Source of the DNA: a bacterium UBP11_UBA4055 | GTDB lineage: Bacteria; UBA4055 | DNA: 64,000 bases | NCBI GenBank assembly: GCA_002382735.1 | Contig: DFZN01000044.1 | Location: 93-64,092, forward strand | Reading direction: 5' to 3' | Shown here: one piece after another, positions 8,716 to 39,278 of the stretch | How positions within the stretch are numbered: the first letter of the stretch is position 1 | How the letters are laid out: each line of letters begins with the position of its first letter | Made by a program: the position numbers and the translations under genes | The notes under the pieces: generated by a model | What the model was told of the DNA's origin: nothing | Seen by the model: only the letters and a program-made list of their open reading frames with translations | Databases searched by the model: none

Positions 8716-8724
8716 AAGCTTCTG

Positions 8725-9647: not shown

Positions 9648-9786
9648 TATCCCTCCCTTTGCCGGCGTTATCCGAACTTCCTTTTATTATACTCTGCATG
9701 AGTTCCGATAAACTGTATGTAAACAGATCCGCAATTATAAGCTATCCGCGTGACCAGCCTGTAACTGTTTCCCTTAATATTAAACA

Positions 9787-10185: not shown

Positions 10186-10276
10186 ATTTTAACCTGATTT
10201 AACGATCTCTTTATACTTGGAGTGTACCCGATAATGCAGTACCGTTAATACTCTTAAGCTGTATCTACATGATATA

Positions 10277-11170: not shown

Positions 11171-11172
11171 AC

Positions 11173-11796
11173 TTATCCGAGAAGAGTTTTTATTGAGGAA
11201 TTAATTATTTTTGCCACTCTGCAAATTTTCGCATATTCTTTCAGCTTGAAAAAATCAGTATTCTTACTGTTTACATAATTCTTCAAACATTCGTACGCAA
11301 TGTCTTCACCGATCTTGTTTTTATATCTGAAAATATCACATATCGACTTTTCTCTATCATATATTCTCACAATGCCGTATTTTGTTTCAATTTTATTTAT
11401 TCCCAGATTGAAAGTTTTTTCAGAAAAATAATATCCTTTTACTTTAACACTGTAAATCTTCGGTATCTTCTTATCTCTTTCTACTGCTATATGAACCAAT
11501 GGATTGATATAAGTCGTAAGATCATAGTAAGAAAGTGCTGATAGAATGCAGATTACAGAATCAGGAGCAGCTTTTGCGATATCCACAAAATCAAAACTTA
11601 CATTTCCCGGCTCTGTCAGTTCTGCCAACCTGTACAAACCCGGTTTTACCCTGATAATAGTTCCATTATCGACTATTTGTTTGATATGCAAAGAGTGAAA
11701 CCCTTTCTTTTTAAGATCCATATCTCTTACATAACCATTGTTTTTTTCAAAATATTTAATAATCTCAGTCATAAATCTTGTCCTATTCTTCTGCAC
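11173..11796 (-). CDS. AbiEi-family antitoxin (transcriptional regulator)
   Basis: 207-aa ORF 2 bp upstream of the AbiEii gene. N-terminal wHTH-like segment (GYVRDMDLKKKGFHSLHIKQIVDNGTIIRVKPGLYRL) is typical of AbiEi. Confidence 0.7.
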   Translation of the reverse strand: MQKNRTRFMTEIIKYFEKNNGYVRDMDLKKKGFHSLHIKQIVDNGTIIRVKPGLYRLAELTEPGNVSFDFVDIAKAAPDSVICILSALSYYDLTTYINPLVHIAVERDKKIPKIYSVKVKGYYFSEKTFNLGINKIETKYGIVRIYDREKSICDIFRYKNKIGEDIAYECLKNYVNSKNTDFFKLKEYAKICRVAKIINSSIKTLLG

Positions 11797-11844: not shown

Positions 11845-12060
11845 TGATGTCAATTCTTTAAATTTTACATTACTAAAGTATTTGCTATAATAGTACATTG
11901 CAATTTGACCACCCCACGAGTGCGCAAGTAAATAAAAATCCTTAATATCTAAAACAATACAAAGATCATTCACCCATTCGGATTGTCTTTATTACCCCAT
12001 TCTGCTATTCTTGTTTTTGCGACTGACACTTCAACAAAACTTTGTTTCATACTTTAACCT
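11845..12060 (-). pseudogene. Degraded second copy of the alpha/beta-hydrolase gene 5' part (internal deletion)
   Basis: 11872-11990 and 12000-12060 align to 9855-9975 and about 10120-10200 (for example tatttgctataataaaacattgcgatctgaccgccacacgagtgcgcaagtaaataaaattccttaatatct). No intact ORF. Confidence 0.5.
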
Positions 12061-12111
12061 GATTTAAAAAAAATTATACTGAATTAAATGTGGTTAATTA
12101 GATCCCGTTTT

Positions 12112-12296: not shown

Positions 12297-12539
12297 TTAT
12301 CTTTTTAGTTTTTTTATCTGATTTTCATAGGCATCGTGATTGCCTACAAAGGCCAGACCCGTTTTAGAAAAAAGCAACCGATATTTATTGTTTAACTTAC
12401 AGGAAAAATAGCCCGGGAGACTGGAAATATTTTTCCACCCGCTCCATTTTGGATTGAAAAGATTATCGCTGCTGACTATAGATTCAGCTTTGAATAATAC
12501 ATTGTCAGGTACATGGCTTATGCAGATTATGCGAAACAT
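12297..12539 (-). CDS. RelE/YoeB-family toxin-like protein
   Basis: GYFSCKLNNKYRLLFSKTGLAFVGNHDAYE fits the RelE/YoeB C-terminal pattern (G[YW]xSxRIxxxxRLxYxxxxxxLxxxxxxxHY). Start overlaps the radical SAM gene end. Confidence 0.45.
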   Translation of the reverse strand: MFRIICISHVPDNVLFKAESIVSSDNLFNPKWSGWKNISSLPGYFSCKLNNKYRLLFSKTGLAFVGNHDAYENQIKKLKR

Positions 12540-13405
12540 GATTCTCTCCTTTCTTCAGTTACACTGTGGTATTTATAAAACTTTACAAGATCAACGAACT
12601 CATTCGCAGTGAAATTTTTAAAATTCATATCCATTACCCTGCCGATCTCAATTTTGATAATTCTTTTATTTTCGATTTTATTGGTATGAATAATCCCGTC
12701 AGGTGTGATATTCATGTACGAGTTATGCATCTGATCGTTATTTTCAATTACAAGCTGAACTTCTGAACCATTTAATTGATCTTCTACATATTTTCTCAAA
12801 TCTTCAAAATCATCGTCAGACACAGTAAGACTGTCATCTTTTTCTGTAAATTCTACAACCGGCATATACTGGTAAATTTTCCAGCGATAGTAACCGTTCT
12901 TTTTCACAAATTCACACATTTCTCTTATGCTAACGAGATTGATCGAAGTTACGACGGTATTTAGCTTTATTTTCATGCCGGATTTTCTTGCATAATGATG
13001 CAATGATAAGGCATGTGACAAATGGCTTACAGGTCTGCCTAAAAGCACCTGTTCTGCATTGTTCAGAGTGTCAATATCAATTGTAAGTATATCAAGGACG
13101 TCTTTGAAATTATCCAGATCGGAAGTAGTAAGATAAGAACCGTTTGTTATCAGTTCTGTCTTTATACCTTTTAATTTCAAATATCTAATAAGATCTATAA
13201 CTTCCGCTTTTGAATGCCAAAGCATCGGCTCGCCGCCTGCAAGACTCAGCTTTCTGCATCCCCAGCTGTAAAGCTTGTCTGTTATTCCTTTTGCTTCTTC
13301 GTAGCTGGACAGCTTACCGCTTGTGTATCTGTAGCAGTATTTACATTTATAATTACATGCTGTGGTGAGTGACCATGATGCCGAGAAGTTGCTTTGCTGA
13401 TTCAT
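12527..13405 (-). CDS. Viperin-like radical SAM enzyme (candidate prokaryotic viperin, pVip)
   Basis: CNYKCKYCY cluster (viperin CNYKCGFCF), LSLAGGEPMLW (viperin INFSGGEPFLQ), ELITNGSYL (SIVSNGSLI), DILTIDIDTLNNAEQVLLGR ([20 protein letters not shown]) and KIKLNTVVTSINL...RWKIYQYMPV (AFKINSVINRFN...RWKVFQCLLI) all align with human viperin. Length 292 aa. Confidence 0.7.
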   Translation of the reverse strand: MNQQSNFSASWSLTTACNYKCKYCYRYTSGKLSSYEEAKGITDKLYSWGCRKLSLAGGEPMLWHSKAEVIDLIRYLKLKGIKTELITNGSYLTTSDLDNFKDVLDILTIDIDTLNNAEQVLLGRPVSHLSHALSLHHYARKSGMKIKLNTVVTSINLVSIREMCEFVKKNGYYRWKIYQYMPVVEFTEKDDSLTVSDDDFEDLRKYVEDQLNGSEVQLVIENNDQMHNSYMNITPDGIIHTNKIENKRIIKIEIGRVMDMNFKNFTANEFVDLVKFYKYHSVTEERRESCFA

Positions 13406-21269: not shown

Positions 21270-21700
21270 TGAAAATGAACAACCCCGAGGCAAGCCTCGA
21301 GGAATCTAAAAGAGTGTCGGTTGGCCTTTGAACACCTGAGCATATTTCTTATTTTCACCCTGACTCTCAACATATTTTTTTATTACCTCTTCATTTGCGT
21401 ATTGACTAACCGTATTTGCATAGTAGCCGCTCGTCCAAAAATTTCCACCCCATAGCTTTGATTTTATCTCAGGGTGCTTTTCGAACAGTTCTCTTGCTGT
21501 GATACTTTTCAAGACTCTCGTTATTTCCGATACATTCATTGATGGTACACTCTGAACCAAAAAATGAACATGATCTTCTTCGTACCCTATTTCAATCACT
21601 CATTCCTGTAATATACGCTTTTTCAAAGCGCTATGAAAACCTCAGGTTTTCAATCTTTCCTCTTGACCCCGAGGCAAGCCTCGAGGTATTCTCTTCGAAT
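21270..21700 (-). mobile_element. IS200/IS605-family insertion sequence remnant (truncated tnpA flanked by two subterminal hairpins)
   Basis: Identical palindromic motifs CCCCGAGGCAAGCCTCGAGG at 21283-21302 and 21667-21686 (stem CGAGGC/GCCTCG). They bracket a tnpA that lacks its N-terminus. Element is only about 430 bp. Confidence 0.6.
21306..21599 (-). pseudogene. tnpA: IS200-type Y1 (HuH) transposase TnpA, N-terminally truncated
   Basis: EEDHVHFLVQSVPSMNVSEITRVLKSITARELFEKHPEIKSKLWGGNFWTSGYYANTVSQY...EVIKKYVESQ matches the IS200 TnpA HuH motif through the C-terminus. About 50 N-terminal aa are missing and the frame opens with GTG right after a TGA. Confidence 0.65.
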
Positions 21701-24525: not shown

Positions 24526-25578
24526 TCACACATCAAAAGCAAGGCTTCTCCAAAATTCATTAAAGAAATCTTTACAAGTTACAGTTGGAAGACTAAGACT
24601 TACATAGCTATCATGAATATCGAAATATTCAGAAAGCTCATTTTTAATTACGCTTTGGTCTTGTAAAGAAATATTGTATGTCGTGCCATAGCATTCAGGA
24701 TTGATTCCACCACTCGTTGTAATATACGGTTTTATCAATTCCATGTTTATTTTATGATAAGCGAAGCCCAAGAAAACTAGTTTGTTGGCCAATCCGGTCT
24801 TTTCTCTGATTTCTTTTATATCGCTTGACTCAGGATCTACACCCTCGGTGAATGTTTTAATCCTTTTGGATAATTCTAAAAGTTTATCCGGTGCAGGATT
24901 TCCTCCGTAGCCAAGATTTTCTCCAGCTCTGTTTAGCAACAATCCTACATCTCCGTAAGGGTGATAAATTTCTAATTGTTCCAGAATTTCATAAGTCTCC
25001 AAAACATTCACATCGTAGTACTGCTGTAATGCGTAATAAAGAAATTGTTCAACGCATCTATCATAGTTGAAAATCACTAGGGTTACATTTTTAAATCTAT
25101 CTTTCAAATCTTCCTTAGTACAATTTTCGGTCAGTAGTTTAAAAAAAGGTAGATACCATGTATTTTTTAACTTTTTAAAATCAAGCCCATTCCCTCTTGA
25201 ATTGTAATTGGCAAGCAAGCTTTTACCTTCTGATTCTAAAATCGCCTTTACTATTGCCAGTTTACTGCATAATTCGATCTCCTCATTACCTCTTTGAGAA
25301 TCTATATAATTGTCAATTGATATAGCTAAAGTTAATGCTTTTGATATCCTTCTTGATTCTTTAAGGTAATTGTTGTAAGCAGAATTATCACGGCCAATAT
25401 TTTTAGTATGTATCTTCAATGCTTCTGAAATATTGAAATCACCACTTTCTAGTCTGAATCCTCCTTCATATCTTATATCAAGTAATCGAGAAATATTCTC
25501 TTTAAGCTCTTCACCTACAGGCATGTTTACTTCTTTACTTGCACCAGCCCCAATAACGAAAACTATTCTTTTAGTCAT
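24526..25578 (-). CDS. SIR2-family (defence-type NADase-like) protein
   Basis: VFVIGAGASKE Rossmann start, TLVIFNYDRCVEQ (conserved TTNYDxLxE motif of ThsA/DSR-type SIR2), IYHPYGD. 350 aa, no extra C-terminal domain recognisable. Confidence 0.65.
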   Translation of the reverse strand: MTKRIVFVIGAGASKEVNMPVGEELKENISRLLDIRYEGGFRLESGDFNISEALKIHTKNIGRDNSAYNNYLKESRRISKALTLAISIDNYIDSQRGNEEIELCSKLAIVKAILESEGKSLLANYNSRGNGLDFKKLKNTWYLPFFKLLTENCTKEDLKDRFKNVTLVIFNYDRCVEQFLYYALQQYYDVNVLETYEILEQLEIYHPYGDVGLLLNRAGENLGYGGNPAPDKLLELSKRIKTFTEGVDPESSDIKEIREKTGLANKLVFLGFAYHKINMELIKPYITTSGGINPECYGTTYNISLQDQSVIKNELSEYFDIHDSYVSLSLPTVTCKDFFNEFWRSLAFDV

Positions 25579-25582
25579 ACTT

Positions 25583-26530
25583 TTAGTTCTCCTCAGTTAG
25601 AGTAAGTATATCGTGATGTAATTTGGCCAAAGGTCGCATGTGAAAATGTTCAGGATCAAGAATGACTCCAAATATATCTTTTTTTAAATTCTCATCATTT
25701 ACACTCATTATACTTGCCATTTCTTCTATTCGGGTATCCGGATATTTATCTCTTAAATTACATAGTTTCTTTACATAATCATTGTGCGTAGCATATTGTT
25801 CATTTATTTTTAAAGCTTGAATTAAATCTGAATATTCTTCATGTTCTAGCCTTGGTTTGAAACTATCATGGTCTATAATCCAAAATTTAATCTTATGCAA
25901 TTTGAATGATTCATCATAAGGTGATTTACATTTCACTTCGCTTTGATTCTTTAACATTGTATTGCAGGTCATACATACAGGCACTAAATTATAAAATGAA
26001 TAAGTTATTATAGGTGATTTTGCTTTATAATAGAAATGATCCAAAGAGTAAGTTCTACTTCCATTTTCTAACTCATTAATAAAGTTGCGATTACAAAAAT
26101 AACAACTTTCTAATTCAATATGATCATCATACCAATTTTTAATTCTATTTGTGACTCCTCCACTCCATATAAATAATTTTTGATATATTTCAACAGCTTG
26201 CATATTTAAGTAAAGATCAGTAAAATTATCTGAATTAATATATTCATATAGCACATTTGGTTCAGCGCACAAAACTTTTTTGAATAAATTCCGATAATCA
26301 TCTTGGTTAACTAAATTATTATCTCTATCAAAAAAGTCTCTATGATTTTCTATGCTATTTTGGAATTCTGTATTTATAGAGGATATTTCATATGCAATCG
26401 CGTAGATTTTCCCTTTTCTTTTTATATCTCCAAAAACAAAATCCTCACTATTAAAATTGTAATTTAATATGTCATTGGCATAAGAATCAATACTAAAAAC
26501 AGATTCTTCCTTAAAGATTACTTTCAACAT
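25583..26530 (-). CDS. HNH nuclease-domain protein (PtuB-like)
   Basis: CYFCNRNF...LDHFYYKAK...NLVPVCMTCNTMLKNQ is the HNH bba-Me motif. Start overlaps the upstream ATPase gene stop region (26530/26533). Confidence 0.6.
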   Translation of the reverse strand: MLKVIFKEESVFSIDSYANDILNYNFNSEDFVFGDIKRKGKIYAIAYEISSINTEFQNSIENHRDFFDRDNNLVNQDDYRNLFKKVLCAEPNVLYEYINSDNFTDLYLNMQAVEIYQKLFIWSGGVTNRIKNWYDDHIELESCYFCNRNFINELENGSRTYSLDHFYYKAKSPIITYSFYNLVPVCMTCNTMLKNQSEVKCKSPYDESFKLHKIKFWIIDHDSFKPRLEHEEYSDLIQALKINEQYATHNDYVKKLCNLRDKYPDTRIEEMASIMSVNDENLKKDIFGVILDPEHFHMRPLAKLHHDILTLTEEN

Positions 26531-26532
26531 AA

Positions 26533-28434
26533 TTAACTCTTTAACTTTTTATTTATGAATTCAATAGACTTTTCAATTTGGTCTTTTAAATATTTTTCAC
26601 CAATATTTTTACTTATAAGTGAGAAATAGTTAATAAAAGTTATTCCTTTTTTATATTCACCGTAAAATTTTTGCCTTAACTCTTCTATTATTTGTGCATC
26701 ATTTTTAGATAAGTCTACTTCTTTTAAAAAATCAAAAAATTCCTTTAATTGCACACGAGCATATTCTCCGATATAGCTATTAAGAAAAAAACCATTTTTA
26801 TAAAGATCAAAAATATTAGCAGCAAAATAATTTTCAGTTGGATTAATCTGAATAGGCATTTCTTTATCATCCTTTGATAAAAGTATTATATTACTTGAAG
26901 GCATATCAGATGCTATAAATGGAGAGTGTGATGTGAGGATTAAATGTAAATTGCAGTTTTTAAAAAATATTTCAGTATTAAATACATTTGTAATCGTATT
27001 TAAAAATTTCCTTTGCCATTCAGGATGTAAAAGGTAATCGGGTTCATCCATTAAAATATGTATTTCTTTACCTTTGATTGATTTTCTCTTTTCTTCGTTA
27101 TCTAATAAAGTATAAAACATCGAGAAGAAAGTTAACATTGCTTTTTCTCCTGAAGAAAGACCTTTCCAATCAATTAACATGAATCCCGAATCAGGTAGCA
27201 ATCTAATTCCTTCAACTATCGTATTTAATACCTTCTTTTCTTCTTTTAATCTTATAGTAAAATTATTATAAGATTGTATCTTCGGATTATTGGTTTTTAT
27301 TATATCAATAAGTAATTGATAGTATGAACTGTAAAACTTATAACCGTTCGTAAGAATTAGCTTTGATTTAGGATTTTTCTTTATGCGAGAGTTTTCATCA
27401 AGATATAATTTGAAAAATGACATAATTCTTTCTTTTAAACTACGACCATATATTTTGTTACATTCAACCATATCATCGTCATGGTTTGTTCCATCTTTTA
27501 TAAAAACATGATAAAATAACATGCTAAAAAATTGAGTAAGAATTGCATCTTCATAATCATCTTTATAGTCATTTTTTAATGGTGTTATGACTTTATGATA
27601 AATTTCCAAATAATCCTTGCCTCTATGAACTTTTTCAGATTCCAAACGCACTGTCTCGGAATAATCAACATTTATACCGATTTTAATATATTCAGGTATT
27701 TTAAGATCTTCAATCTCTAAACCTAACTTTTCCTTCTCATATATAAAATTAAGACATTTAAGTACTAAGTATTGTTCTAAACTTTGAGTTAAGTTTTCAT
27801 TAGGTTTCAACAACAACCAATCTTTAAAATCTCTACTATTTATAATAGCGTCAATAGAAATGTTATTTTTATACGCACTTTCGTAACCATTAAAATCACT
27901 ACGATTAAGAAATATGTTACTATAAAAAATCATATTATCTTGTGATAGTGCTTGATATTTCATACCGGGTAGTGCTTGCTCAATATTATTGTATAAGTAT
28001 AAATCATCTGTTAAGGTAAGGCTATATTTCTTTAATGATTGTATCTTAGCTAACTCTTTAGACTTTTTACATATATAAAAAGCTTTATTAGACCATAAAT
28101 AAAATTCTTCATTTTCTTTATAAACTAGTATTGCTTTATCTTCAACTGGAAAAGTCCATTTTTCTTCCAATCTGTACAATCCAGAAATTATTGTAGATTT
28201 ACCAACGCCATTTTTTCCAATAATTGCTGTTATATTTTTAACTGCATTTCCTTGTGAATTTGTAAAAAATTCAGGAATGTAATTTTCATTCTTACTGCAT
28301 ATTAGAATATCTTTCCCATCTTTATTTATTACACTAAAAATAAACTCACTTCCAAAATTAAAACATGCAATCTTGTCAGAGTTTTGCAAACATCCAAAAG
28401 CAGGATGATCTTTTGTCCACAAAAATACAATCAT
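26533..28434 (-). CDS. ABC/SMC-type (AAA_15/AAA_21-like) ATPase (PtuA-like)
   Basis: Walker A GKNGVGKST near residue 75, signature-like LSSGEKA, Walker B HILMDEPDYLLH, H-loop LILTSHSPFI near the C-terminus. 633 aa. Extremely AT-rich coding sequence. Confidence 0.65.
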   Translation of the reverse strand: MIVFLWTKDHPAFGCLQNSDKIACFNFGSEFIFSVINKDGKDILICSKNENYIPEFFTNSQGNAVKNITAIIGKNGVGKSTIISGLYRLEEKWTFPVEDKAILVYKENEEFYLWSNKAFYICKKSKELAKIQSLKKYSLTLTDDLYLYNNIEQALPGMKYQALSQDNMIFYSNIFLNRSDFNGYESAYKNNISIDAIINSRDFKDWLLLKPNENLTQSLEQYLVLKCLNFIYEKEKLGLEIEDLKIPEYIKIGINVDYSETVRLESEKVHRGKDYLEIYHKVITPLKNDYKDDYEDAILTQFFSMLFYHVFIKDGTNHDDDMVECNKIYGRSLKERIMSFFKLYLDENSRIKKNPKSKLILTNGYKFYSSYYQLLIDIIKTNNPKIQSYNNFTIRLKEEKKVLNTIVEGIRLLPDSGFMLIDWKGLSSGEKAMLTFFSMFYTLLDNEEKRKSIKGKEIHILMDEPDYLLHPEWQRKFLNTITNVFNTEIFFKNCNLHLILTSHSPFIASDMPSSNIILLSKDDKEMPIQINPTENYFAANIFDLYKNGFFLNSYIGEYARVQLKEFFDFLKEVDLSKNDAQIIEELRQKFYGEYKKGITFINYFSLISKNIGEKYLKDQIEKSIEFINKKLKS

Positions 28435-28455: not shown

Positions 28456-29229
28456 TCAATGATCTTTTATCACTTCAGTAATCTCATCTGCAATTTCTTT
28501 AATTGTAAACGTAGCTGTATTTCTGGCTAGTTTATCTGCTAAAGAGGGACTATAATCTATTACTTCCTGTTTTGTGATTTTATGCCATATTGGCAATAGA
28601 ATCTGTTCCCCACTAACAGCTTTAGTTATTATTCCATCCAATTCGTAATTCGTCCACCCTTTATTAATGAAATTTTTAGAGAGAACAACTATTCCGAATC
28701 TACTATTTGCTAACCCTTTATCTATTTTTCTTCTCAAACTATCACCGATTTTTAGCTCAAATTCATCATACCATACTTTTAAATTATTTAATTGAAGCTG
28801 GTTCGCTAAAGGTCTTACAATATCATCTTTATCTTCTGAAGCATGAGAAATAAAGACATCGTACTTTCTTATTATATTGTCATCATTTTGATTAGGTGGA
28901 ACTTCTCTGTCTCGTACTAATGAAGGAACACTTGATAAAGGCGCTTCTTTTGCACTAGGTAACAAACCAGGTAAAACTCTTAAATTGTATTTTATTTGCC
29001 CGCTATGTCCACCTAAATCTAAAACAACATACCATCTACCACTTCTAGGCACATTGAGTTTAAATGGTGAGCTTGTTACATATCCTCCGTAATAATTATG
29101 TCTTTTCCCACTTTTATAATTTGAAAAATTCGAACTATCTACTAATCTTACATTTGCTGCACTTCCTAGAGTAACCTCTACGATTTCTCCTCCATTTAAT
29201 TGCCCTAAATCACTATATAAAAACTGCAT
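28456..29229 (-). CDS. DUF1883-TIR domain protein
   Basis: N-terminal MQFLYSDLGQLNGGEIVEVTLGSAANVRLVDSSNFSNYKSGKRHNYYGGY...PRSGRWYVVLDLGG is the DUF1883 signature. C-terminal DVFISHASEDKDDIVRPLANQL...WYDEFELKIGDSLRRKIDKGLANSRFGIVVLSKNFINKGWTNYELDGI is a TIR domain. Confidence 0.7.
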   Translation of the reverse strand: MQFLYSDLGQLNGGEIVEVTLGSAANVRLVDSSNFSNYKSGKRHNYYGGYVTSSPFKLNVPRSGRWYVVLDLGGHSGQIKYNLRVLPGLLPSAKEAPLSSVPSLVRDREVPPNQNDDNIIRKYDVFISHASEDKDDIVRPLANQLQLNNLKVWYDEFELKIGDSLRRKIDKGLANSRFGIVVLSKNFINKGWTNYELDGIITKAVSGEQILLPIWHKITKQEVIDYSPSLADKLARNTATFTIKEIADEITEVIKDH

Positions 29230-30246: not shown

Positions 30247-31533
30247 TTAAACAAACATACCTTGCAACAATCCTTTCTTAAATTCTTTTAGCCTAGCTAA
30301 TTCTTTGTTGATATGCTCAATTCTCGTATCTAAATCAATTAGAAAATCAGCTATCTTTTTTTGTTCTTCTAATACAGGTAGCATAATTTCAAGTTCAGAA
30401 ATGGCTTTCTTAGAAATTCCAAAAACAGAGATGCCTTGTGCTAATTTCATAATTTGGTCTTTTACATATGGAGAACTTAAGTAGTGTCCATTGTAACCTA
30501 AAGCCATTTTAGCCTTGAATCTAACATGAATAGTATGCAGTCCGGCTAGTATTTTCTCTTTGCTCATGTTTGTTATTTCTATGCACTTCCCTATATCCTT
30601 CGTATCCTCAGAAGCATCGGCAAATATAATGTCACCATTTTGACAGAAATTAATATTGTTATATTTTTCTATGTTTACATCTTCGTTTATATATGGGATT
30701 AAGGCTGATTTGACATTCAAAATTGAAGGATATCGCATGTGTATATCACCGTAATGTATATTTTGTACCTGTCCAGCCTTATAATTCATACATTCTCTTG
30801 AAAATGAATTTGTTTGTATGAATTCCGCCACATCCCCAAGCCTCTTTTCTTCCCAGTCAGGGTAATTTTTCCCTTTTTCATCTTTGAAGCGGATTTTCTG
30901 CGAGAAGATTTTTTGCATTGCTCCTTTTTTGTACTGTTCGGTGAGTTGTTTTTTGCGGGCGAGTTTTTCGATTTTCGTGTCTATGTCGGAAAGGAATTCT
31001 GCGATCTTGTTTTGCTCTGGCAAAGAAGGAATATAGAAGGAAAAATTACCCATCTGTTGCAAATTCAAATTAGGTTGTGCGCCTACACTAATGCTTTCTA
31101 AAATATATTTTCTCATAACTTCAGATTGCAAAATATGTAAAATGTAATTCAATGAAGAGTAATCTTTGAGTCTTATTATTGATAATGCCTGATTTGTGTT
31201 AGCTGGTAAATTTTCTTTCTTTACAACAGCAACTTTACCGATTGTAGCACCAGCTATAGCAAATAAAATATCATTTTCTTTTAAAACAGACCTGTTTAAA
31301 GCACCAAAATGCACATCGTTATCTATATATAAACATTTTTCATTTACAATATTAGCACCATCTAAGCTCTCAATTTTAATGAATTTTACACCTTCTTTAC
31401 TAAAATAATTTGGAGTAGTGCCTTTTGTAATCAATGCTGAATAATCTTTTAGTCTCTTCTCCTTCCACTCTCCTGTGAAGCCGGGGAAGCGGAGTTTTGG
31501 TTGTTTTGTGTTTTTATCTGAATGGCTTTTCAT
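30247..31533 (-). CDS. hsdS: Type I restriction-modification specificity subunit HsdS (two TRDs)
   Basis: Central and C-terminal conserved coiled regions (LPSLPEQNKIAEFLSDIDTKIEKLARKK... and LPVLEEQKKIADFLIDLDTRIEHINKELARLKEFKKGLLQGMFV), each preceded by a variable target-recognition domain. Confidence 0.85.
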   Translation of the reverse strand: MKSHSDKNTKQPKLRFPGFTGEWKEKRLKDYSALITKGTTPNYFSKEGVKFIKIESLDGANIVNEKCLYIDNDVHFGALNRSVLKENDILFAIAGATIGKVAVVKKENLPANTNQALSIIRLKDYSSLNYILHILQSEVMRKYILESISVGAQPNLNLQQMGNFSFYIPSLPEQNKIAEFLSDIDTKIEKLARKKQLTEQYKKGAMQKIFSQKIRFKDEKGKNYPDWEEKRLGDVAEFIQTNSFSRECMNYKAGQVQNIHYGDIHMRYPSILNVKSALIPYINEDVNIEKYNNINFCQNGDIIFADASEDTKDIGKCIEITNMSKEKILAGLHTIHVRFKAKMALGYNGHYLSSPYVKDQIMKLAQGISVFGISKKAISELEIMLPVLEEQKKIADFLIDLDTRIEHINKELARLKEFKKGLLQGMFV

Positions 31534-31544: not shown

Positions 31545-32396
31545 TTATTTTATTTTTATTGTAAATATTTCGTTGAACAATTTTGTTTTTCTGACCTGAT
31601 CGGTCTCGGTGTGTTCCTCTTTATTATTGATGACCTCGTATTCGACCGCGCCTATGTATGTCAGGTATGTTCTGAATACTCTGTTACGGTAAGCCCACCA
31701 GTGAGACATTGTCTTATATTTTGGATCGGGATCGAAATCGAACGCGTCCATTGAGGCGGGGAAAGCTTTAAAGAACTTGTTGTAGTAATCTCTTGATTCC
31801 CTGTATTCGTTCCCGTACTTTTCGAGAAGGTATAAAGTGTAGCCGACGGACCTTTGGATGAAACCGTCGTCCTGTCTGACGGATTCAAATCCCCAGTTGA
31901 ATTTGGATATGAGAGCGACCATTAACCCTGCATATAATTCGCGATCGTCTGTGAGAGCCTCTTCGCCTGCTTTTGTTATAGTTATAACATTGTTCCTCAA
32001 TTTTGTATAACCGCATAACTTGGCCAGAAGGCGGGCTACAAATATGATAATGACATCTTTTTCGCCTGAAAGCTTTACTATTCCCCTTTCAACCGCGTCA
32101 TCTTTGAGTTCTGTATTTTCATAAAGTTCCCTGACATACTTTGGAGGCATGTATTCGGCCTGTGTGAGCTTTATCTCTTTTTCTCTTTCCAATATCTGCA
32201 TAAAGTGTTTGACGAGCTTAAAGATCGGAATCTGATTAATTGCTTCTGTCGAGATATCTTTATTAAGCTGAACTATTGCTCCATCGGTAAAGGAGAAATA
32301 CAGAATGTTGTGCATTTCATCCGGCGAAAGGCCGTCGAAGTCGTCTATTCCTCTGCTGTTCTGTTTGTTCAAGTATTTCTGAAAATCTGATTTCAT
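31545..32396 (-). CDS. Hypothetical protein (283 aa) embedded in the Type I R-M operon
   Basis: Intact ORF between DUF1016 and hsdS, 11 bp from the hsdS start. No motif recognised. Confidence 0.4.
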   Translation of the reverse strand: MKSDFQKYLNKQNSRGIDDFDGLSPDEMHNILYFSFTDGAIVQLNKDISTEAINQIPIFKLVKHFMQILEREKEIKLTQAEYMPPKYVRELYENTELKDDAVERGIVKLSGEKDVIIIFVARLLAKLCGYTKLRNNVITITKAGEEALTDDRELYAGLMVALISKFNWGFESVRQDDGFIQRSVGYTLYLLEKYGNEYRESRDYYNKFFKAFPASMDAFDFDPDPKYKTMSHWWAYRNRVFRTYLTYIGAVEYEVINNKEEHTETDQVRKTKLFNEIFTIKIK

Positions 32397-32436
32397 ACTA
32401 ATTGCCCTTTTGATTTTCTTTCTTCATTTCTACCTT

Positions 32437-32488
32437 TTTTACAGCCTTGATTACGCACAATTGTGCAAGTGAGACTTGCACAATTAAG
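32437..32488 (+). repeat. ~50-bp palindrome-containing element, copy 2
   Basis: TTTTACAGCCTTGATTACGCACAATTGTGCAAGTGAGACTTGCACAATTAAG. Overlaps the stop codon of DUF1016 gene 1. Confidence 0.7.
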
Positions 32489-33578
32489 AGCGGTCATTAT
32501 CACTGCCGTAAACTGCCTCTATCTCCCTTACCATGAGTTGTTTCAGCTCCTTTTTCTCGGGCAGACTGTTTTTTATGAGTTCTTCTATTTCATAGGCGGC
32601 AACTCCGAGCGGAATTTTCATTCCTCTCATAGCATATTCCACCTTGATGTTGCTTTTTGACGCACAGAGCAGAAGGCCGATCGTAGGTTTATCATTTCCG
32701 CTTTTTAATATGTCGTCAACCGCGCTTATATAGAAATTCAGCTTGGATATATATTCCGGCATGAATTCCCCTGCTTTAAGTTCAATAACAATGTAGCAGT
32801 GCAGGATCGTGTGGTAAAAAAGCAGATCTATTTTATATTCAGTTCCGTCAACTTCTAATCCGTACTGTCTGCCGACAAAAGCAAAACCCTTACCAAGTTC
32901 GATAAGAAAATCTGACAATTTCTCTGTCAGTTTCTGTTCGATCTCATATTCCTTGACTTTCCTCGTAAGATTCAGGAATCCGAACTTATACGGGTCCTTA
33001 AATATGCTCTGCGCGAGATCCGACTGATAGTCCGGAAGTGATTCCGAAAAATTATTGATAGCCTTTCCGCTTCTCCTATACAGACCGGAAGCAATCTGCA
33101 TAAGCATAACTTCTGTATTCCATCCGTTATTCGAAGATTCTGTTATATAAAATGCCCTTTCCTTAATGTTTTTTACTTTCCCGATTAGAGAGATATGCTG
33201 AAACCATGTAATTTTATCAAGAGGTATTTTAGTATAGTCTCCTTTCTTTCTTGAAAGCGGTATATTAAGGAATGGATAATCAGGATATGCCTCCGCGAAT
33301 GTTCTCATATAATTCAAATTTCTTACAGAGTAGCCGGTCGAATCGGGAAAATCCTTTTTTATGTCTTGTGCAAGATTGGATATAACATGCCCTCCCCAAC
33401 CCAGTCTTTTCTGAACATCGAGAACGGAAAAACCTATTTCCCAGTAAAGCTGAAGCATCTCGCTGTTTACCTTTAAAGCCGTCCTTAATTGAGCTCTTTT
33501 TATCTTGCCTGATATATCCTTTGACCATTTTATATAATCGGACTTGGGAATATTATTGACGATTACTCCGCCTTTCAT
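32484..33578 (-). CDS. DUF1016 (YhcG-like, PD-(D/E)xK nuclease superfamily) protein, copy 1
   Basis: Family-typical layout: N-terminal helical domain, C-terminal GKGFAFVGRQYGLEVDGTEYKIDLLFYHTILHCYIVIELKAGEFMPEY (D...ELK core). Located between hsdM and hsdS, as DUF1016 genes frequently are. Confidence 0.7.
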   Translation of the reverse strand: MKGGVIVNNIPKSDYIKWSKDISGKIKRAQLRTALKVNSEMLQLYWEIGFSVLDVQKRLGWGGHVISNLAQDIKKDFPDSTGYSVRNLNYMRTFAEAYPDYPFLNIPLSRKKGDYTKIPLDKITWFQHISLIGKVKNIKERAFYITESSNNGWNTEVMLMQIASGLYRRSGKAINNFSESLPDYQSDLAQSIFKDPYKFGFLNLTRKVKEYEIEQKLTEKLSDFLIELGKGFAFVGRQYGLEVDGTEYKIDLLFYHTILHCYIVIELKAGEFMPEYISKLNFYISAVDDILKSGNDKPTIGLLLCASKSNIKVEYAMRGMKIPLGVAAYEIEELIKNSLPEKKELKQLMVREIEAVYGSDNDRS

Positions 33579-33603
33579 GCTGATACTCCTGCATTTTTAA
33601 ACT

Positions 33604-33653
33604 TTTTACAGCCTTGATTACGCATAATTGTGCAAGTGTGACTTGCACAATTA
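33604..33653 (+). repeat. ~50-bp palindrome-containing element, copy 3
   Basis: TTTTACAGCCTTGATTACGCAtAATTGTGCAAGTGtGACTTGCACAATTAG between hsdM stop and DUF1016 start. Confidence 0.7.
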
Positions 33654-33692
33654 GGGAAATATAGGCACAGTTCATGCCTGACATAATATAGC

Positions 33693-35243
33693 TTATTCAT
33701 CATTACCTCCGAATACGGGCGGGGTGATTCCGAGTTCTTTGCACTGCGCGATGATCTTTTTGTCTGTGAGTTTTATGTCAGCTTCGATGTTTTTGAGTTC
33801 CTGCGCGATCTTATCGAGGTCAATTTCGTCTTCCTCTTCGAATGTATCGACATATCTTGGAATGTTGAGGTTGTAGTCGTTCTGCCTGATCTGTTCTATT
33901 GAGGCTGAGTGCGAGTATTTTTCTTCCTCTTTTCTGTTCCTGTATGTGCTTATGATCTTTTCGACATCTTCATCGCGTAGATTGCTCTGATTTTTGGCTT
34001 TTTCGTAAGACCGGCTTGCGTCTATGAAGTGTATGCTGTCGGATTCTGTTCTGCATTTTTTGAATACGAGGATGACTGTGGGTATTGATGTTCCGTAAAA
34101 GATGTTCGCGGGCAGTCCGATGACGGCATCGAGCCAGTTCTTTTCCTCAATGATGTATTTTCTGATCTCGCCTTCCGCTGCTCCTCTGAATAGTACTCCG
34201 TGCGGTAAGACTATTGCCATTGTTCCGTTCTCGTCAAGCTGATAGAGCATGTGCTGAACGAATGCGAAGTCCGCCTTTGTTTTCGGCGCGAGTTTTCCGT
34301 ACGGGCTGAATCTTTCGTCCGATAAGAAGGTCTGGTTTGCCGCCCAGTGCGCGGAGAATGGCGGATTGGCTACTACTGCCTCAAAGCGTTTGTCCAGGTC
34401 GTGCGGTTCTTCGAGAGTGTCTCCCTGCGTTATGTGAAAATCGTTGTATTTGACCGAATGGAGTATCATATTCATTCTCGCCAGGTTGAAAGTGGTGGTG
34501 TTTAATTCCTGCCCGTAGAAGTCCGATACTTTACATTCCTTCGATACCCTGAGTAAGAGCGATCCCGAGCCGCAGGTTGGGTCATATACCGATCTGAGTC
34601 TTTCTTTGCCTGTCGTGACGATCTTTGCCAGTATTTTTGATACCTGCTGGGGCGTATAGAACTCACCCGCTTTCTTTCCCGCTCCGCTCGCGAACTGTGA
34701 GATTAAATATTCATAAGCGTCGCCGAGTACATCCGCCTCTGTGTCCTCAAGCCTGAAATCAACTTCCGCTATGTGCTTGATAACTTCCGAAATGAGCTTG
34801 TTCTTCAGCTCGACCGTTCTTCCGAGCTTTGTCGAAGTAAGATCAACATCCTCAAAAAGTCCCGCGAAATCCTCCTCGCTCTTATGGCCGATGGTTGCTT
34901 CCTCCACCGATTTTAATGCCTTGCCGAGATCTTCAATTACAAACTCCCTGTTCCTTGCCCTTTCCGCTATCCTGCTGAATAAGTTTGCTGGTAAAATAAA
35001 AAAGCCCATATCTTCGATACATTCCTCTTTTAAGTCATGCGAAAGCTCTTTATCCTTCATAGCCTCTTCAAAGCTCAATTTGTCCGATTTTAGCTCATCT
35101 GAAACGAATTTCTCGATCTTTTCCGATAAGAATTTATAAAAAATAAAGCCGAGGATATAGTCCCTGAATTCATCCGCACCCATATTTCCGCGTAAAGTGT
35201 TCGCTATGTCCCATAATTTCTGTTCGAGCTTCTGCTTTGTCAT
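33693..35243 (-). CDS. hsdM: Type I restriction-modification DNA methyltransferase subunit HsdM (N6-adenine)
   Basis: N-terminal HsdM_N-like region, SAM-binding DPTCGSGSLL, catalytic motif IV VVANPPFS. Confidence 0.9.
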   Translation of the reverse strand: MTKQKLEQKLWDIANTLRGNMGADEFRDYILGFIFYKFLSEKIEKFVSDELKSDKLSFEEAMKDKELSHDLKEECIEDMGFFILPANLFSRIAERARNREFVIEDLGKALKSVEEATIGHKSEEDFAGLFEDVDLTSTKLGRTVELKNKLISEVIKHIAEVDFRLEDTEADVLGDAYEYLISQFASGAGKKAGEFYTPQQVSKILAKIVTTGKERLRSVYDPTCGSGSLLLRVSKECKVSDFYGQELNTTTFNLARMNMILHSVKYNDFHITQGDTLEEPHDLDKRFEAVVANPPFSAHWAANQTFLSDERFSPYGKLAPKTKADFAFVQHMLYQLDENGTMAIVLPHGVLFRGAAEGEIRKYIIEEKNWLDAVIGLPANIFYGTSIPTVILVFKKCRTESDSIHFIDASRSYEKAKNQSNLRDEDVEKIISTYRNRKEEEKYSHSASIEQIRQNDYNLNIPRYVDTFEEEDEIDLDKIAQELKNIEADIKLTDKKIIAQCKELGITPPVFGGNDE

Positions 35244-35250
35244 TTATTGC

Positions 35251-38076
35251 CTACCATTTATATTTATTCACGATGCTTTCTATGCTGTTTTCGAGTTGTT
35301 CGATCTTTCTTTTCCGTTCCGAAAGTTTAAGATTGCCGACGAGTGCCGATTTGATCTTATCGCGCTGGAATTTGTTTGAAAATTCATATTCCTCGACCAC
35401 TGCGTAAACGAGTGCTTTATCAAGCTTTTCCGATCTTATCATCGCCCCTATCTCTTTTTCCTTTTCCTTTGAGATGAATTTGTCGAATTCTTCCTCCACA
35501 TTCGCGTCTGTGCCCAGTTCAGGCAGGTTTTCCTTAATGAACCTTTCGATCAGTTCGCGCTTGCTTCTGAGTTCGTCCGAGCCTTCCATGGTCTTTAAGA
35601 TAAATTCCACATCTTTACTAAATCCGGAATCGTTCATGTCGAGGTCTTTTAACAGCTTTAAGATATAATCCACATTGATATCGTCCCTGCGCACGAGTTC
35701 GACTTCAAAATCAAGGTCTTTTAAGATAGATTCCTTATCAGGGTCTTTCGTTTCGTCGCGAATGTCTAAATATTTGCTCCTGTAATCCTCAAATTCCTGC
35801 CTTGATATGGAAAGGTCGTCATATTCAAATTCGGTGAAGGTCACAAGTCTGTTCATGATGCGTAAGAGGTTCCTGAAAGCTTTGACGAAAAGTGCTTTCT
35901 GCTCATCGCCTTCGAGCCTGTCAACCGAATCTATTGTCGGCGTAAGGTTTTTTAATTCTTCGAGCGCATTGTTAAAATCTACCGCGTATTCCGTGTAGGC
36001 TTTCATAAGTACGGTTTCAATGGCTTCGGGATTGGAAAATAGTGCTATCGCTTCGTCTGTTCTTTTCTTGAGATTTCTGAAGCAGACGATATTGCCGTAT
36101 TTCTTCTTTTCCCCAAGCACCCTGTTCGTTCTTGAAAATGCCTGAATCAGCCCGTGATAGCGCAGGTTCTTATCCACATACAGAGTATTGGTATAAACGC
36201 TGTCGAATCCCGTTAAGAACATATTGACGACAAGCAGAATGTCTATCTTCTTTTCCTTCACCTTTTTGGAAATATCCACAAAATATGCGTTGAAGCCGTT
36301 GTCCTTGTTCAGGTCGAAGTTGGTCTTGAAAGTTTTGTTATAGTCATCCACGATCAGATCGAGCTTTTCTCTCGGGTGGACCTGCCTGTCGCCGTAAATT
36401 GCCTGATCCTCCGCAACCATGCTCATGTATTCTTTCTGCTTATAGTTCCCGTACTGATCCTCAAGCTCCTCGTTTGCCTGATATGAAAAGATGGTCGCTA
36501 TGTTCAAATTATGCTTCTTATGCCTGAAAAGTTCATAGTATTTCAAAAGCGTGTCTATCGAGCTCACCGCGAAAATCGCATTGTATTCCCTGTTATATGT
36601 CTTTCTGTCGTGATTCTTTATAATAAAATCAGCTATGTTGGACAGCCTTTCATCCGCCGAAAAAACCTCATCCTTATTTATGCCTTTGACCTTATCCATT
36701 TCATCCACATCAATATCATCGCCGTTCTCTTCTTTTAAAAATTTTGACCTGAAAGTGGAATAGTACTCGACGGAAAAACCGAGCACATTATCATCGTCTA
36801 TAGCATCCTTAATGATATATTTGTGCAAACATGAACCGAAAAGATCCTTCGTGGTAGTAAACCCGACGCTGTTCTCCTCGAATATCGGAGTGCCCGTAAA
36901 GCCGAAGAAAAGCCTGTTCTTAAAATAATCTTTTATCCTTTTGTGGGTTTCCCCGAACTGGCTCCTGTGGCATTCGTCAAAAATAAATATTATGCGCTTG
37001 TTGCTTACATCGCCGAGCCTGTTGTTGAATTTGACCCTGCTGACAGCATTGTTGAGCTTCTGTATCGTTGTTATGATAAGCTTCGTCTTTTCGTCGGAAA
37101 GCTGTTTAACGAGCATTTTTGTGTCGTCTGTGGCGTCAACCGAGCCTTTCGAGAATTTGTTGAACTCCTTCATGGTCTGGAAGTCGAGATCTTTCCTGTC
37201 AACGACGAAGACGACCTTGTCAACATCCTTGTCGGCGGTGATGATCTGGCTGGCCTTGAATGAAGTGAGCGTTTTGCCCGAGCCTGTCGTGTGCCAGATG
37301 TAGCCGTTCCGGTCAACTTTGCCCGCCACGCGCTTGATTATCTTTTCAGCTGCGAAATACTGGTAAGGTCTGAGCACCATTAGGAATTTATCCGATTCGT
37401 TGAGGACTATGTATTTTGAGATCACTTTGGCGAGATGGCATTTTTCCAGGAAAATATCCGCGAATTCGTTCAGCCTGTTGAATTTTTCGTTCTTTTCATC
37501 CGTCCAGCAGAAGCTTTGCTTGAAGTTTAGAGTTCTGTTGTTCGCGAAATATCTTGTGTTGACCCCGTTTGAAATGATGAAAAGCTGGAGGTATAAAAAG
37601 AGGCCTCTGAACGAATGATCTTTGTAGCGGCATATCTGGTTAAACGCCTCTTTAAGTTCTATGCCGCGCCTTTTCAGCTCGATCTGGACGAGCGGCAGCC
37701 CGTTGATCAAAATAGTCACATCGTAGCGGTTCTTGTACCTCTCCGCCATATTTATCTGGTTTGATGCCTGGAATTCGTTCTTGCACCATTCTTCGGTGTT
37801 GAAAAATTCAATGTAGGAAAGCGTATCGTCGTCTCTGTACAGCTCGAACTTGTTGCGCAGTTTCTTCGATTTATCGAATATCGTTCCGCCGTCAAGGTGA
37901 TTAAGTATCTTATTAAATTCTGATTTGGAGAAAGTGGTCTTATTGTGCTTTTCGAGCTGAGTTTTAAAGTTCGCCGTCAGATCTTTTTCATCGTGCAGAA
38001 TGATCTTTTCATAGCCCTGAATTTGCAGCTGTTCGATGAGTTTTTTCTCTAAAGTCGCTTCCGATTGAATGCACAT
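35251..38076 (-). CDS. hsdR: Type I restriction endonuclease subunit HsdR (SF2 helicase-nuclease)
   Basis: Walker A HTTGSGKTLTSF, DEAH-like IFDECHRSQ, N-terminal PD-(D/E)xK region. 941 aa. 7-bp gap to hsdM. Confidence 0.9.
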   Translation of the reverse strand: MCIQSEATLEKKLIEQLQIQGYEKIILHDEKDLTANFKTQLEKHNKTTFSKSEFNKILNHLDGGTIFDKSKKLRNKFELYRDDDTLSYIEFFNTEEWCKNEFQASNQINMAERYKNRYDVTILINGLPLVQIELKRRGIELKEAFNQICRYKDHSFRGLFLYLQLFIISNGVNTRYFANNRTLNFKQSFCWTDEKNEKFNRLNEFADIFLEKCHLAKVISKYIVLNESDKFLMVLRPYQYFAAEKIIKRVAGKVDRNGYIWHTTGSGKTLTSFKASQIITADKDVDKVVFVVDRKDLDFQTMKEFNKFSKGSVDATDDTKMLVKQLSDEKTKLIITTIQKLNNAVSRVKFNNRLGDVSNKRIIFIFDECHRSQFGETHKRIKDYFKNRLFFGFTGTPIFEENSVGFTTTKDLFGSCLHKYIIKDAIDDDNVLGFSVEYYSTFRSKFLKEENGDDIDVDEMDKVKGINKDEVFSADERLSNIADFIIKNHDRKTYNREYNAIFAVSSIDTLLKYYELFRHKKHNLNIATIFSYQANEELEDQYGNYKQKEYMSMVAEDQAIYGDRQVHPREKLDLIVDDYNKTFKTNFDLNKDNGFNAYFVDISKKVKEKKIDILLVVNMFLTGFDSVYTNTLYVDKNLRYHGLIQAFSRTNRVLGEKKKYGNIVCFRNLKKRTDEAIALFSNPEAIETVLMKAYTEYAVDFNNALEELKNLTPTIDSVDRLEGDEQKALFVKAFRNLLRIMNRLVTFTEFEYDDLSISRQEFEDYRSKYLDIRDETKDPDKESILKDLDFEVELVRRDDINVDYILKLLKDLDMNDSGFSKDVEFILKTMEGSDELRSKRELIERFIKENLPELGTDANVEEEFDKFISKEKEKEIGAMIRSEKLDKALVYAVVEEYEFSNKFQRDKIKSALVGNLKLSERKRKIEQLENSIESIVNKYKW

Positions 38077-38082: not shown

Positions 38083-39162
38083 TTATTTATCTCCGTATAA
38101 TGCCATTTCTTCTTTGACCATGAGTTTTTCAAGCTGTTCTTCGGTAGGCAGGTAAAGTTTGTACTTTGAGGCAAAGAGCTTCTTTCCGTCCGCAAGGACT
38201 GAGTATTTTGCTATTGTTTCGTTTTTCTCGCTGCAGAGTATCAGACCTATTGTCGGATTGTCGTCCTCTGATCTGAATTTTTCTTCAAAGATCCTGACAT
38301 AAGAGTCCATTTGTCCGACATCCTGATGCGTAAGCTTTCCTCTTTTCAGGTCTATGAGCACAAAACATTTGAGTTTGTAATTGTAGAATACAAGGTCTAT
38401 ATAAAAATGCTCACCGTCCATATCAATATGTTTCTGCCTGGCAACGAAAGAAAATCCGCTTCCGAGTTCAAGCAGGAATTGGGCAAGATTGTCGAGTAAA
38501 GCTGTTTCAAGCTCGGTTTCGGTAAATTCTTTTCTATTTTTCAGTCCGGCGAATTCAAGTACATACGGGTCTTTGAGAATATCATCGGATTCGAGATTTC
38601 TTGTATTCTCTTTAGCTTCTTCTATTACCGGTTTTTTGTTACGGCCGGAAAGCAATCGTTCGTAATAAAAGCTGTTGATCTGTCTTTCGAGAGCTCTGGT
38701 TGACCAATTCTCGCTTATTGCTTCCTTCATGTACCATTGGCGGGCTTTTTCGTCCTCTACTTTGAGCAAATGACGGTAATGAGTCCAGCTTAATTCTGTA
38801 CTGACCGAGTTCGGCAATGGAGATTTGGAACTCACTGCGTTCCGAATTGGAAAGAATATAAAAAACTGCCTCATATACCGCAAATTTCTCTCGTCATATC
38901 CCTCGCCGAATTCCGCGGTAAGTTTCTCAGAAAGATGTCTGAGTGTTTCTTTTCCATACTCAGCTCTTTTTTCTCCTTTGAGCTCATCTTCGACAATAAT
39001 TTTGCCTATGTTCCAGTAAGTAATGACCATTGTGGTGTTGACAGCGGTTCTTACCTGCTTTCTCGATTCAGCTATCAGTTCTGCAATCTGCTTATATATA
39101 TCGTTTTTTGTAAACTTATTCATCATTTCCTCCGAATACGGGGTGATTCCGACTGAATGCAC
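38083..39162 (-). CDS. DUF1016 (YhcG-like) protein, copy 2; true start probably Met-Met at about 39125
   Basis: Paralogue of 32484..33578 (GSGFSFVARQKHIDMDGEHFYIDLVFYNYKLKCFVLIDLKRGKLTHQD). The first ~13 annotated codons (HSVGITPYSEE) derive from a remnant of an hsdM 3' end (compare 33699-33740 with 39115-39152). Confidence 0.65.
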   Translation of the reverse strand: MHSVGITPYSEEMMNKFTKNDIYKQIAELIAESRKQVRTAVNTTMVITYWNIGKIIVEDELKGEKRAEYGKETLRHLSEKLTAEFGEGYDERNLRYMRQFFIFFPIRNAVSSKSPLPNSVSTELSWTHYRHLLKVEDEKARQWYMKEAISENWSTRALERQINSFYYERLLSGRNKKPVIEEAKENTRNLESDDILKDPYVLEFAGLKNRKEFTETELETALLDNLAQFLLELGSGFSFVARQKHIDMDGEHFYIDLVFYNYKLKCFVLIDLKRGKLTHQDVGQMDSYVRIFEEKFRSEDDNPTIGLILCSEKNETIAKYSVLADGKKLFASKYKLYLPTEEQLEKLMVKEEMALYGDK

Positions 39163-39278
39163 ATTTGCGCCAAAACCTCTTAGTTTCCGATATTCACATC
39201 AAAGAATATATTTCAAGTCTTTTATTTAGTCAAAGGAATTAATAATGAAAAAGGGCGGTAAAAAACCGCCCTGAGAGT

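Follow-up and report, generated by a model that had tools for sequence, protein, structure and literature searches.

A low-copy palindromic repeat at the junctions of a replaced DUF1016 allele in a Type I restriction-modification operon

Small dispersed palindromic repeats at gene ends are a well-known kind of bacterial sequence. Repetitive extragenic palindromes (REPs) occur in tens to hundreds of copies in a genome, with a conserved 5′ tetranucleotide of GTAG type; the gene of the REP-associated tyrosine transposase (RAYT) is flanked by REPs, and the repeats stabilise upstream mRNA and serve as substrates for recombination. The Correia elements of Neisseria (Correia repeat enclosed elements, CREE), the enterobacterial repetitive intergenic consensus sequences (ERIC, also intergenic repeat units, IRU) and the Rickettsia palindromic elements (RPE) have clear terminal inverted repeats and many copies, with TA duplications in the Correia case. 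The pdif modules of Acinetobacter plasmids have XerC/XerD sites of 11-6-11 layout, placed in inverted orientation around each module. Here we describe a repeat of this general kind, belonging to an undescribed sequence family, in a 64,000-nt stretch of DNA (the window) from the uncultured bacterium UBP11_UBA4055 (contig DFZN01000044.1); it occurs there three times, and two of the copies flank a DUF1016 gene inside a Type I restriction-modification (R-M) operon. It looks like a repeat that marks gene swapping and may aid it, not like a new cassette system. The explanation that we prefer, and hold tentatively, is that of a low-copy, lineage-specific junction repeat, similar to REPs or to miniature inverted-repeat transposable elements (MITEs), which would give portable homology for recombination in the manner of promoter-early stem-loops (PeSLs), the mobile regulatory cassettes of T4-type phages (Arbiol et al. 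2010, PMC2839356).

Like PeSLs, the element is a short, conserved, intergenic stem-loop repeat that flanks non-essential genes in a hyperplastic region, and insertion, deletion or replacement differences between close relatives are bounded by its copies, though here the tight packing of the operon partly forces their positions. Neighbouring PeSLs can recombine into a circle with one gene and one repeat, of which only a single contig (L019, below) is suggestive here. PeSLs differ in having a strong sigma-70-like promoter and an effective terminator stem-loop, neither of which was found here in gene sense, and our element is cellular rather than phage-borne, with three copies known. It shares with REPs and bacterial interspersed mosaic elements (BIMEs) the form of a short extragenic palindrome just past stop codons inside transcription units, with high identity between copies; unlike them, it has 3 copies in 64 kb and no GTAG beside the stem, and the one Y1 gene of the window, a truncated IS200-type tnpA, has unrelated hairpins. 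The likeness to the Correia, ERIC and Rickettsia MITEs extends to a length of ~100 nt, internal dyad symmetry, presence or absence by strain, co-transcription with neighbours and extension or alteration of open reading frames (ORFs), but our element has poorly defined ends, no visible duplication and only three copies. As with pdif, small sites bracket accessory genes, including higBA-type toxin-antitoxin modules, in a setting of mosaic shuffling; they are, however, direct repeats, each made of a 12-3-12 palindrome and a 22-nt asymmetric tail.

Coordinates are those of the window, "core" denotes the 51-nt repeat and gene sense is the minus strand. A scan with the 51-mer matched the plus strand at 9133-9183 (1 mismatch), 32437-32487 (1 mismatch) and 33604-33654 (2 mismatches), copies 1 to 3 respectively, where chance would give none, 100 dinucleotide-preserving shuffles having yielded no match. 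A previous reading of the letters alone (the sequence-only reading) had proposed three near-identical copies in one shared orientation; this is borne out, and its three sites were right, with end coordinates one base off. Scans of the window for the 22-nt tail alone or the palindrome alone (≤3 mismatches) gave no site beyond the known three, and no extra full, half- or tail-only copy was found there. Since the element sequences recur in independent ENA, JGI and Logan assemblies, they are not an assembly artefact; three Logan contigs terminate within the element, as expected of a repeat. Each copy is located at the 3′ end of a minus-strand ORF. All three lie within a 39-kb defence and toxin-antitoxin island, where they occupy only 3 of >30 junctions, and none lies in the 25 kb of housekeeping genes of the window.

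The palindrome, AATTGTGCAAGT-NNN-ACTTGCACAATT, has 12-bp arms and a 3-nt loop. It is perfect in copy 2 (32459-32485) and in copy 3 (33626-33652), where it can be extended to 13 bp, and has one mismatch in copy 1 (9155-9181), A.C in gene sense and a G.T/G.U pair on the plus strand; the inverted repeat of 12-13 bp with a 3-nt loop noticed earlier is therefore real, with that one imperfection. Copies 2 and 3 have different loop sequences. The core reads, in gene sense, C/T-TAATTGTGCAAGT-CNC-ACTTGCACAATT-GTGCGTAATCAAGGCTGTAAAA, with a TAA near its start. The whole element is ~100 nt long, more than the ~50 bp first reported, with the 51-nt core lying between a left part and a right part of ~13 nt. 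Upstream of the core in gene sense, copies 1 and 3 have 27 more nucleotides in common, in register, including CAGGCATG and GCC (repeat family D1, 81% identity over 86 nt), and ~10-13 weakly similar nucleotides downstream (AGTTnAAAnA) are common to all copies. Copy 2 is without the canonical left part.

By Pfam the order of the R-M operon, all on the minus strand, is DUF1016-A, hsdR, hsdM, copy 3, DUF1016-B, copy 2, a 283-aa gene and hsdS, which confirms that copies 3 and 2 sit in the gaps either side of DUF1016-B, a YhcG-type PD-(D/E)XK nuclease gene (32484-33578; PADLOC PDC-S02). Copy 3 is a full-length element (33591-33692): its left part (33655-33692) is non-coding and starts directly after the stop of hsdM (33693-35243), its core (33604-33654) begins 38 nt past that stop, its right part spans 33591-33603, and the ATG of DUF1016-B follows 25 nt downstream of the core. 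In copy 2 (32424-32501) a short left part (32488-32501) codes for the final DUF1016-B residues DNDRS, the core (32437-32487) contains the DUF1016-B stop TAA at 32484-32486, as had been noticed, and the right part is 32424-32436. The element is absent from the orthologous junctions of every relative recovered (L029-L033). All of these have a homologue of the 283-aa gene (31545-32396; no Pfam family) in the order hsdM-DUF1016-X-hsdS, X being that homologue, with stop and start codons that overlap or abut at the hsdM/DUF1016 and DUF1016/X junctions. Among 5.8 billion clusters, only 8 contained homologues of the 283-aa protein, which is therefore rare. Because the arrangement is found in all relatives recovered, tightly coupled and element-free, DUF1016 in this slot is ancestral; DUF1016 genes are commonly placed between the core genes of Type I systems (PMC9881135).

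One relative, L033, locates the change. It has 95% protein identity to the window in hsdR (35251-38076), 98% in hsdM and 89% DNA identity in the 283-aa gene, whereas its DUF1016 protein has only 30% identity to DUF1016-B and 42% to DUF1016-A. The two DNAs are identical up to ...TTCGGAGG, the last hsdM codons, ~10 nt before the stop, and then break just upstream of the copy 3 spacer; homology resumes at 32349, 47 nt into the 283-aa gene. The stretch without homology (33705-32350) includes copy 3, DUF1016-B and copy 2. The window therefore has a replaced DUF1016 allele with one repeat at either junction. The first gene of the operon, DUF1016-A (38083-39162), is of local type (42% identity to the DUF1016 proteins of L033 and L029) and is indeed without the element; hsdS occupies 30247-31533 at the other end.

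At the higA locus, presence and absence of the element can be compared in the same way. Copy 1 is a full-length element (9120-9218) at the end of a higA-like orphan antitoxin gene (9180-9647, minus strand), whose native stop it replaces. Its left part (9184-9218) codes for a 12-aa extension, EKLQACNEPKKH, of the higA-like protein, its core (9133-9183) contains the TAA stop of that gene at the same element position as the DUF1016-B stop in copy 2, and its right part is 9120-9132; the placement of copy 1 at the end of a HigA-like gene thus holds, with the stop inside the core. Element-free higA homologues (81-96% identity) end in ...AEDKxxYxS/K and a stop, whereas the higA-like proteins of the window, L010 and L022 (P0003) run on into EKLQACNEPKKH and a stop, encoded by the left part of the element. 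Two ORFs are extended, and the element has replaced the native stop codons of both higA and DUF1016-B. In L041 and L042, Delongbacteria metagenome-assembled genomes (MAGs) from NCBI without the element, a DUF4379 gene follows 47 nt after higA; in the window the DUF4379 gene (8715-7438) lies ~460 nt downstream of higA, the extra DNA being the element plus a convergent 87-aa gene. L010 and L022 have the same higA-element unit but then relB-like and DUF2442 genes, and their homology to the window ends 13 nt past ...TGTAAAA. The downstream neighbour of higA at copy 1 therefore differs between strains, and the element is not native to its sites but was inserted there. Upstream of the higA-like gene (9648-9790, minus strand) only a C-terminal remnant of the HigB toxin is left, and for this reason the antitoxin seems to be orphaned; in one JGI gene call the remnant is fused into a 202-aa protein with PF09907.

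Of the proposal in the sequence-only reading that the element is a cassette boundary or a site that mobilises DUF1016-type genes, the first part is supported in that copies lie at junctions of strain-variable gene content (DUF1016-B as against L033, and the neighbour of higA). The second part, that it brings DUF1016 genes into R-M operons, fails, the slot being occupied and element-free in every relative found; nor did an empty site with a single copy turn up.

Insertion at gene ends also invites an explanation by transposition, in which a non-autonomous element, MITE-like or similar to palindrome-associated transposable elements (PATEs), is moved in trans by a transposase encoded elsewhere, and the two copies around DUF1016-B are independent insertions at the sole permissive sites, unrelated to the allele swap. 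Presence and absence at orthologous sites, near-identical copies at unrelated loci, and stops overwritten with ORFs extended, as in MITE or RPE insertions, all suit this account, and the island holds a remnant of a Y1 (IS200-type) transposase. Copy 1 also has a candidate 11-nt terminal inverted repeat, TTACAGGCATG...CAAGGCTGTAA, in which TTACAGGCATG and TTACAGCCTTG match at 9/11 positions. Against this account, the match falls to 7/11 in copy 3 and L010, and copy 2 has no canonical left part at all. No target-site duplication was common to the borders when these were set against the element-free sites L041, L021, L033 and L029, and none could be defined; the right border of copy 1 is inseparable from the co-inserted 87-aa gene. 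A target-site preference for insertion after ATAA was considered and dropped, since the comparison with L041 shifted the left border of copy 1 to directly after AATTCC. The hairpins beside the Y1 (IS200/RAYT) remnant, CCTCGAGGCTTGCCTCGGGG, bear no relation to the element, and the remnant was rejected as the cognate enzyme on that ground. Two of three copies flank one gene in the same orientation, an arrangement with a chance of ~0.05 under random junction insertion by a rough estimate, and the copy number is very low, with 3 in 64 kb, all in the island, and one in the whole JGI scan. We consider this account unlikely.

The wider searches agree on that low number. The invariant 19-mer of the element had five matches in GTDB (185,579 species genomes, one each), all by chance and with no adjoining hairpin, and five in 241 M JGI metagenome records, four by chance and one true (L010). 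Neither the tail-hairpin pattern nor the hairpin alone returned anything from IMG/VR, blastn of the 86-nt element against plasmid and phage collections returned nothing, and blastn-short together with Hamming scans of all 42 fetched loci revealed no diverged copies. The neighbouring proteins have their nearest named relatives in Candidatus Delongbacteria MAGs, and the element appears, on these searches, to be low-copy and confined to one Delongbacteria-like lineage. A high-copy REP scattered at random, the case named in advance as the one that would count against a link with cassette junctions, is not what we see: the repeat is rare in these collections and, within the window, restricted to the island.

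We compared seven core sequences, which represent three loci and at least four strains. At 46 of 51 positions they are invariant; only positions 1, 7, 16, 30 and 40 vary. Copy 1 has 0/51 core changes in L010 and 1/51 in L022, while the adjoining native higA sequence is 14% and 18% divergent (binomial P ~5e-4 each), and over the whole 99-nt element the window and L022 differ at 2 positions. The identity of the element is unusually high, and it is presumably younger or more homogenised than its flanks. Since the flanks of the core are as similar as the core in L022, recent spread or homogenisation explains the identity at least as well as selection does. Variants are also common to different copies: copy 2 of the L034 strain, which comes from the same study as L033, differs from copy 2 of the window only at positions 1, 7 and 16, each time by the base that copy 1 or copy 3 has, a pattern that fits what gene conversion between copies would be expected to leave. 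In L019 (JGI 3300002220 MLSBCLC_10084327), a 990-nt contig from another tailings-pond sample, the left, higA side of copy 1 is joined to the right side of copy 2 with the 283-aa gene. This contig carries single-nucleotide polymorphisms against the window on both sides (99.6% and 98.2% identity), and it is possibly the junction expected of a circle or tandem duplication formed through the direct repeats copy 1 and copy 2, which lie 23.3 kb apart. The deletion product, DUF1016-B/element/87-aa gene, was not found in the contigs examined.

Conservation of this degree might instead reflect a cis-regulatory unit under selection, either an operator bound by a sequence-specific protein or a 3′ stem-loop or processing site in the RNA, by which parts of the operon mRNA would be uncoupled or stabilised; in function it would resemble the REP and ERIC sequences found within operons. 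The 46 invariant positions would be natural in such a unit, as would the placing of all copies in gene sense, right after an ORF and 25-60 nt before the next start, and the replacement of the relatives' overlapping, coupled junctions by spacers of 87-114 nt. The hairpin is also stable, with a z of about -3. On the plus strand of copy 1 it is followed by TGTTTTTT, the canonical terminator form, and could there terminate the convergent 87-aa gene; no other copy has a terminator-like form. Yet no sigma-70-like promoter or gene-sense terminator was called at any copy, whereas canonical terminators are used elsewhere in this DNA, for example at 39252-39272. Rfam 15 gave no match at gathering thresholds in the window, and in 32300-33800 the only return was a chance snoRNA (E=0.42) elsewhere than the element. 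RNAalifold on five variants recovered the central hairpin only, with no covariation: there are no compensatory changes, and the sole stem variant breaks the gene-sense RNA pair (A.C). A purely structural hairpin needs neither an invariant loop-proximal sequence nor a 22-nt tail, the relatives run the same operon without the element, and the flanks of the core in L022, as conserved as the core, speak for recent spread rather than selection on the core alone. Selection on a regulatory unit is an unlikely source of the pattern. Resemblances to C-boxes, to sigma-54 sites and to dif were dropped on reading the sequence, and a tRNA-type attachment (att) site was ruled out because no tRNA lies nearby.

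The edges of the exchanged segment bear on whether the repeat is a recombination site in its own right. The best matches of DUF1016-B are Bacteroidota proteins of ~345 aa with ≤66% identity, ending ~20 residues sooner, and no close homologue was found in another context outside this lineage (best 66%, Bacteroidota). Over its final ~24 residues (LPEKKELKQLMVREIEAVYGS) DUF1016-B matches the tails of DUF1016-A and of the L033 and L029 proteins, all of local type, and it is thus a chimeric allele with a Bacteroidota-type body and a local-type tail. As this tail lies upstream of copy 2, the right edge of the foreign segment falls inside DUF1016-B, and copy 2 is not that edge. L034 is window-like (95-100%) from the tail of DUF1016-B through copy 2 and the spacer to ~50 nt into the 283-aa gene, the rest of which is L033-like.

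A dedicated cassette-recombination site is possible but unsupported. One form of it is an att- or attC-like site of a putative trans-acting recombinase that excises and inserts defence cassettes, either a 1167-bp circle of DUF1016-B and a single site or the 23.3 kb that separate copies 2 and 1. The direct repeats around the swapped gene, the nearly invariant core, the L019 junction as the product of a copy 1 x copy 2 circle, and a copy 3 with its full left part beside a copy 2 with a cassette-derived left side, as in hybrid sites after integration, would all follow from it. Integron attC sites, too, lie 3′ of promoterless genes, hold the stop codon within the site and bracket the cassette as direct copies, and their hairpin-dependent function would have a counterpart here. 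However, attC sites have R''/L''-L'/R' boxes (RYYYAAC...GTTRRRY), extrahelical bases and an imperfect stem of 57-141 nt, and they follow every cassette beside intI, none of which applies here. No attC boxes were found at either end of any copy, and among the ORFs of the 64-kb window there is no tyrosine recombinase, no integrase and, apart from the IS200 remnant, no recombinase. The palindrome is a perfect 12-3-12 without a 6-8-bp spacer, RYYYAAC/GTTRRRY boxes or extrahelical bases, its loop differs between copies 2 and 3, other cassettes of the island are without the site, no single-copy empty site was found, the exchange endpoints that could be mapped are not within the site, and DUF1016 in the slot is ancestral. 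We therefore rate such a site as very unlikely. The same holds for the bolder proposal that the core is the recognition site of a putative trans-acting recombinase or HUH-type enzyme moving single defence genes and the 23-kb block as circles, with L019 as a circle or duplication junction, which is a long shot; if true, it would mean integron-independent cassette exchange inside the defence operons of an uncultured phylum.

We return to the portable junction repeat, the explanation that we favour. The element would have come by insertion or recombination at gene 3′ ends in a mosaic defence and toxin-antitoxin island, overwriting stops, and within the ancestral hsdM-DUF1016-X-hsdS operon the DUF1016 allele was replaced, with a repeat now found at both its junctions. 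The copies themselves may be passive: as near-identical direct repeats of 44-51 bp they would give cassettes with nothing else in common the homology needed for RecA-type recombination and gene conversion, and no dedicated recombinase would act on them. The 12-bp hairpin probably forms in the polycistronic mRNA as a 3′ stem-loop after hsdM and DUF1016-B, where it is not an intrinsic terminator. That recombination actually runs through the repeats is something we infer, as is any effect at the RNA level. Several points weigh against this explanation. Neither exchange endpoint that could be mapped is within the element: one falls ~70 nt upstream of copy 2, in the tail of DUF1016, and in L034 the switch to L033-like sequence comes ~90 nt beyond copy 2, inside the 283-aa gene. 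In a tight operon an insertion of ~100 nt survives only at gene junctions, so the match between the repeats and the edges of the non-homologous gene is partly forced. L019 is short (990 nt) and may be a chimeric contig, and the reciprocal of its junction was absent among 13 contigs. Just 3 copies and 7 sequence variants are known. The explanation does not account for the first arrival of the element at three loci; there is no target duplication, and the terminal inverted repeat is weak (9/11 in copy 1 and 7/11 in copy 3). A specific protein that recognises the element could likewise account for its strong conservation.

The surroundings of the repeat are themselves mosaic. The island carries many other 50-120-nt junction repeats, and in its left 12 kb other repeats of 50-200 nt with 82-96% identity link cassette junctions (580-940 and 8751-9088; 811-892 and 7142-7223; 2879-2952 and 8686-8759; 1456-1509 and 2945-2998); among them is a paralogous piece of the 87-aa gene together with its promoter. 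Recombined modules make up the island like a patchwork. An abiEi/abiEii cassette (10277-11796, minus strand) stands between two 84-89% identical copies of the 5′ end of an alpha/beta-hydrolase gene (9835-10202 and 11863-12067), an arrangement that is either a long duplication from insertion or a recombination scar; in L010 the same hydrolase start is found beside a different AbiE pair. The remnant IS200-type element (21284-21690, minus strand) has a 97-aa Y1 transposase ORF (21306-21599, PF01797) that is missing its N-terminus and lies between two identical hairpins CCTCGAGGCTTGCCTCGGGG at ~21671-21690 and 21284-21303. Defence genes of the island (12527-13405, 24526-28434 and 28456-29229) encode a prokaryotic viperin (pVip), a PDC-M62 A/B pair (an AAA_15 ATPase and its partner), a DUF1883-TIR (ThsB-like) protein and a 350-aa protein with a weak SIR2-like N-terminus. 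After hsdS come an FGE-sulfatase-like gene, the DUF1883-TIR gene and the AAA_15 gene. At the other end of the operon (39205-39272, minus strand) a canonical terminator, AGGGCGG-loop-CCGCCCT plus a T-run, follows an M18 peptidase gene and is itself followed by a TTGACT-17-TATATT promoter; here the R-M operon starts, with DUF1016-A, and the core genome gives way to the island. In the contig that contains both L029 and L023 (JGI Ga0116244_10003164), hsdM-DUF1016-289aa-hsdS is ~13 kb away from its hsdR, with defence and toxin-antitoxin genes (RadC, UvrD-like, Fic, higA and abiE) in between, unlike the window, where hsdR is directly upstream of hsdM.

The general importance of the element is limited by its occurrence in one uncultured lineage with three known copies, unless a dedicated enzyme is found. 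The locus also counsels caution, for a repeat-flanked gene here mimics a mobile cassette, yet the relatives show an ancestral slot in which only the allele and its junctions have changed. It illustrates neatly how an allele can be replaced within a conserved hsdM-DUF1016-X-hsdS operon. If the repeats act as portable homology, they would offer a fine-detail view of a defence island swapping single operon genes without an integrase, and could help to explain the varied nucleases, such as DUF1016, that are embedded in Type I R-M operons.

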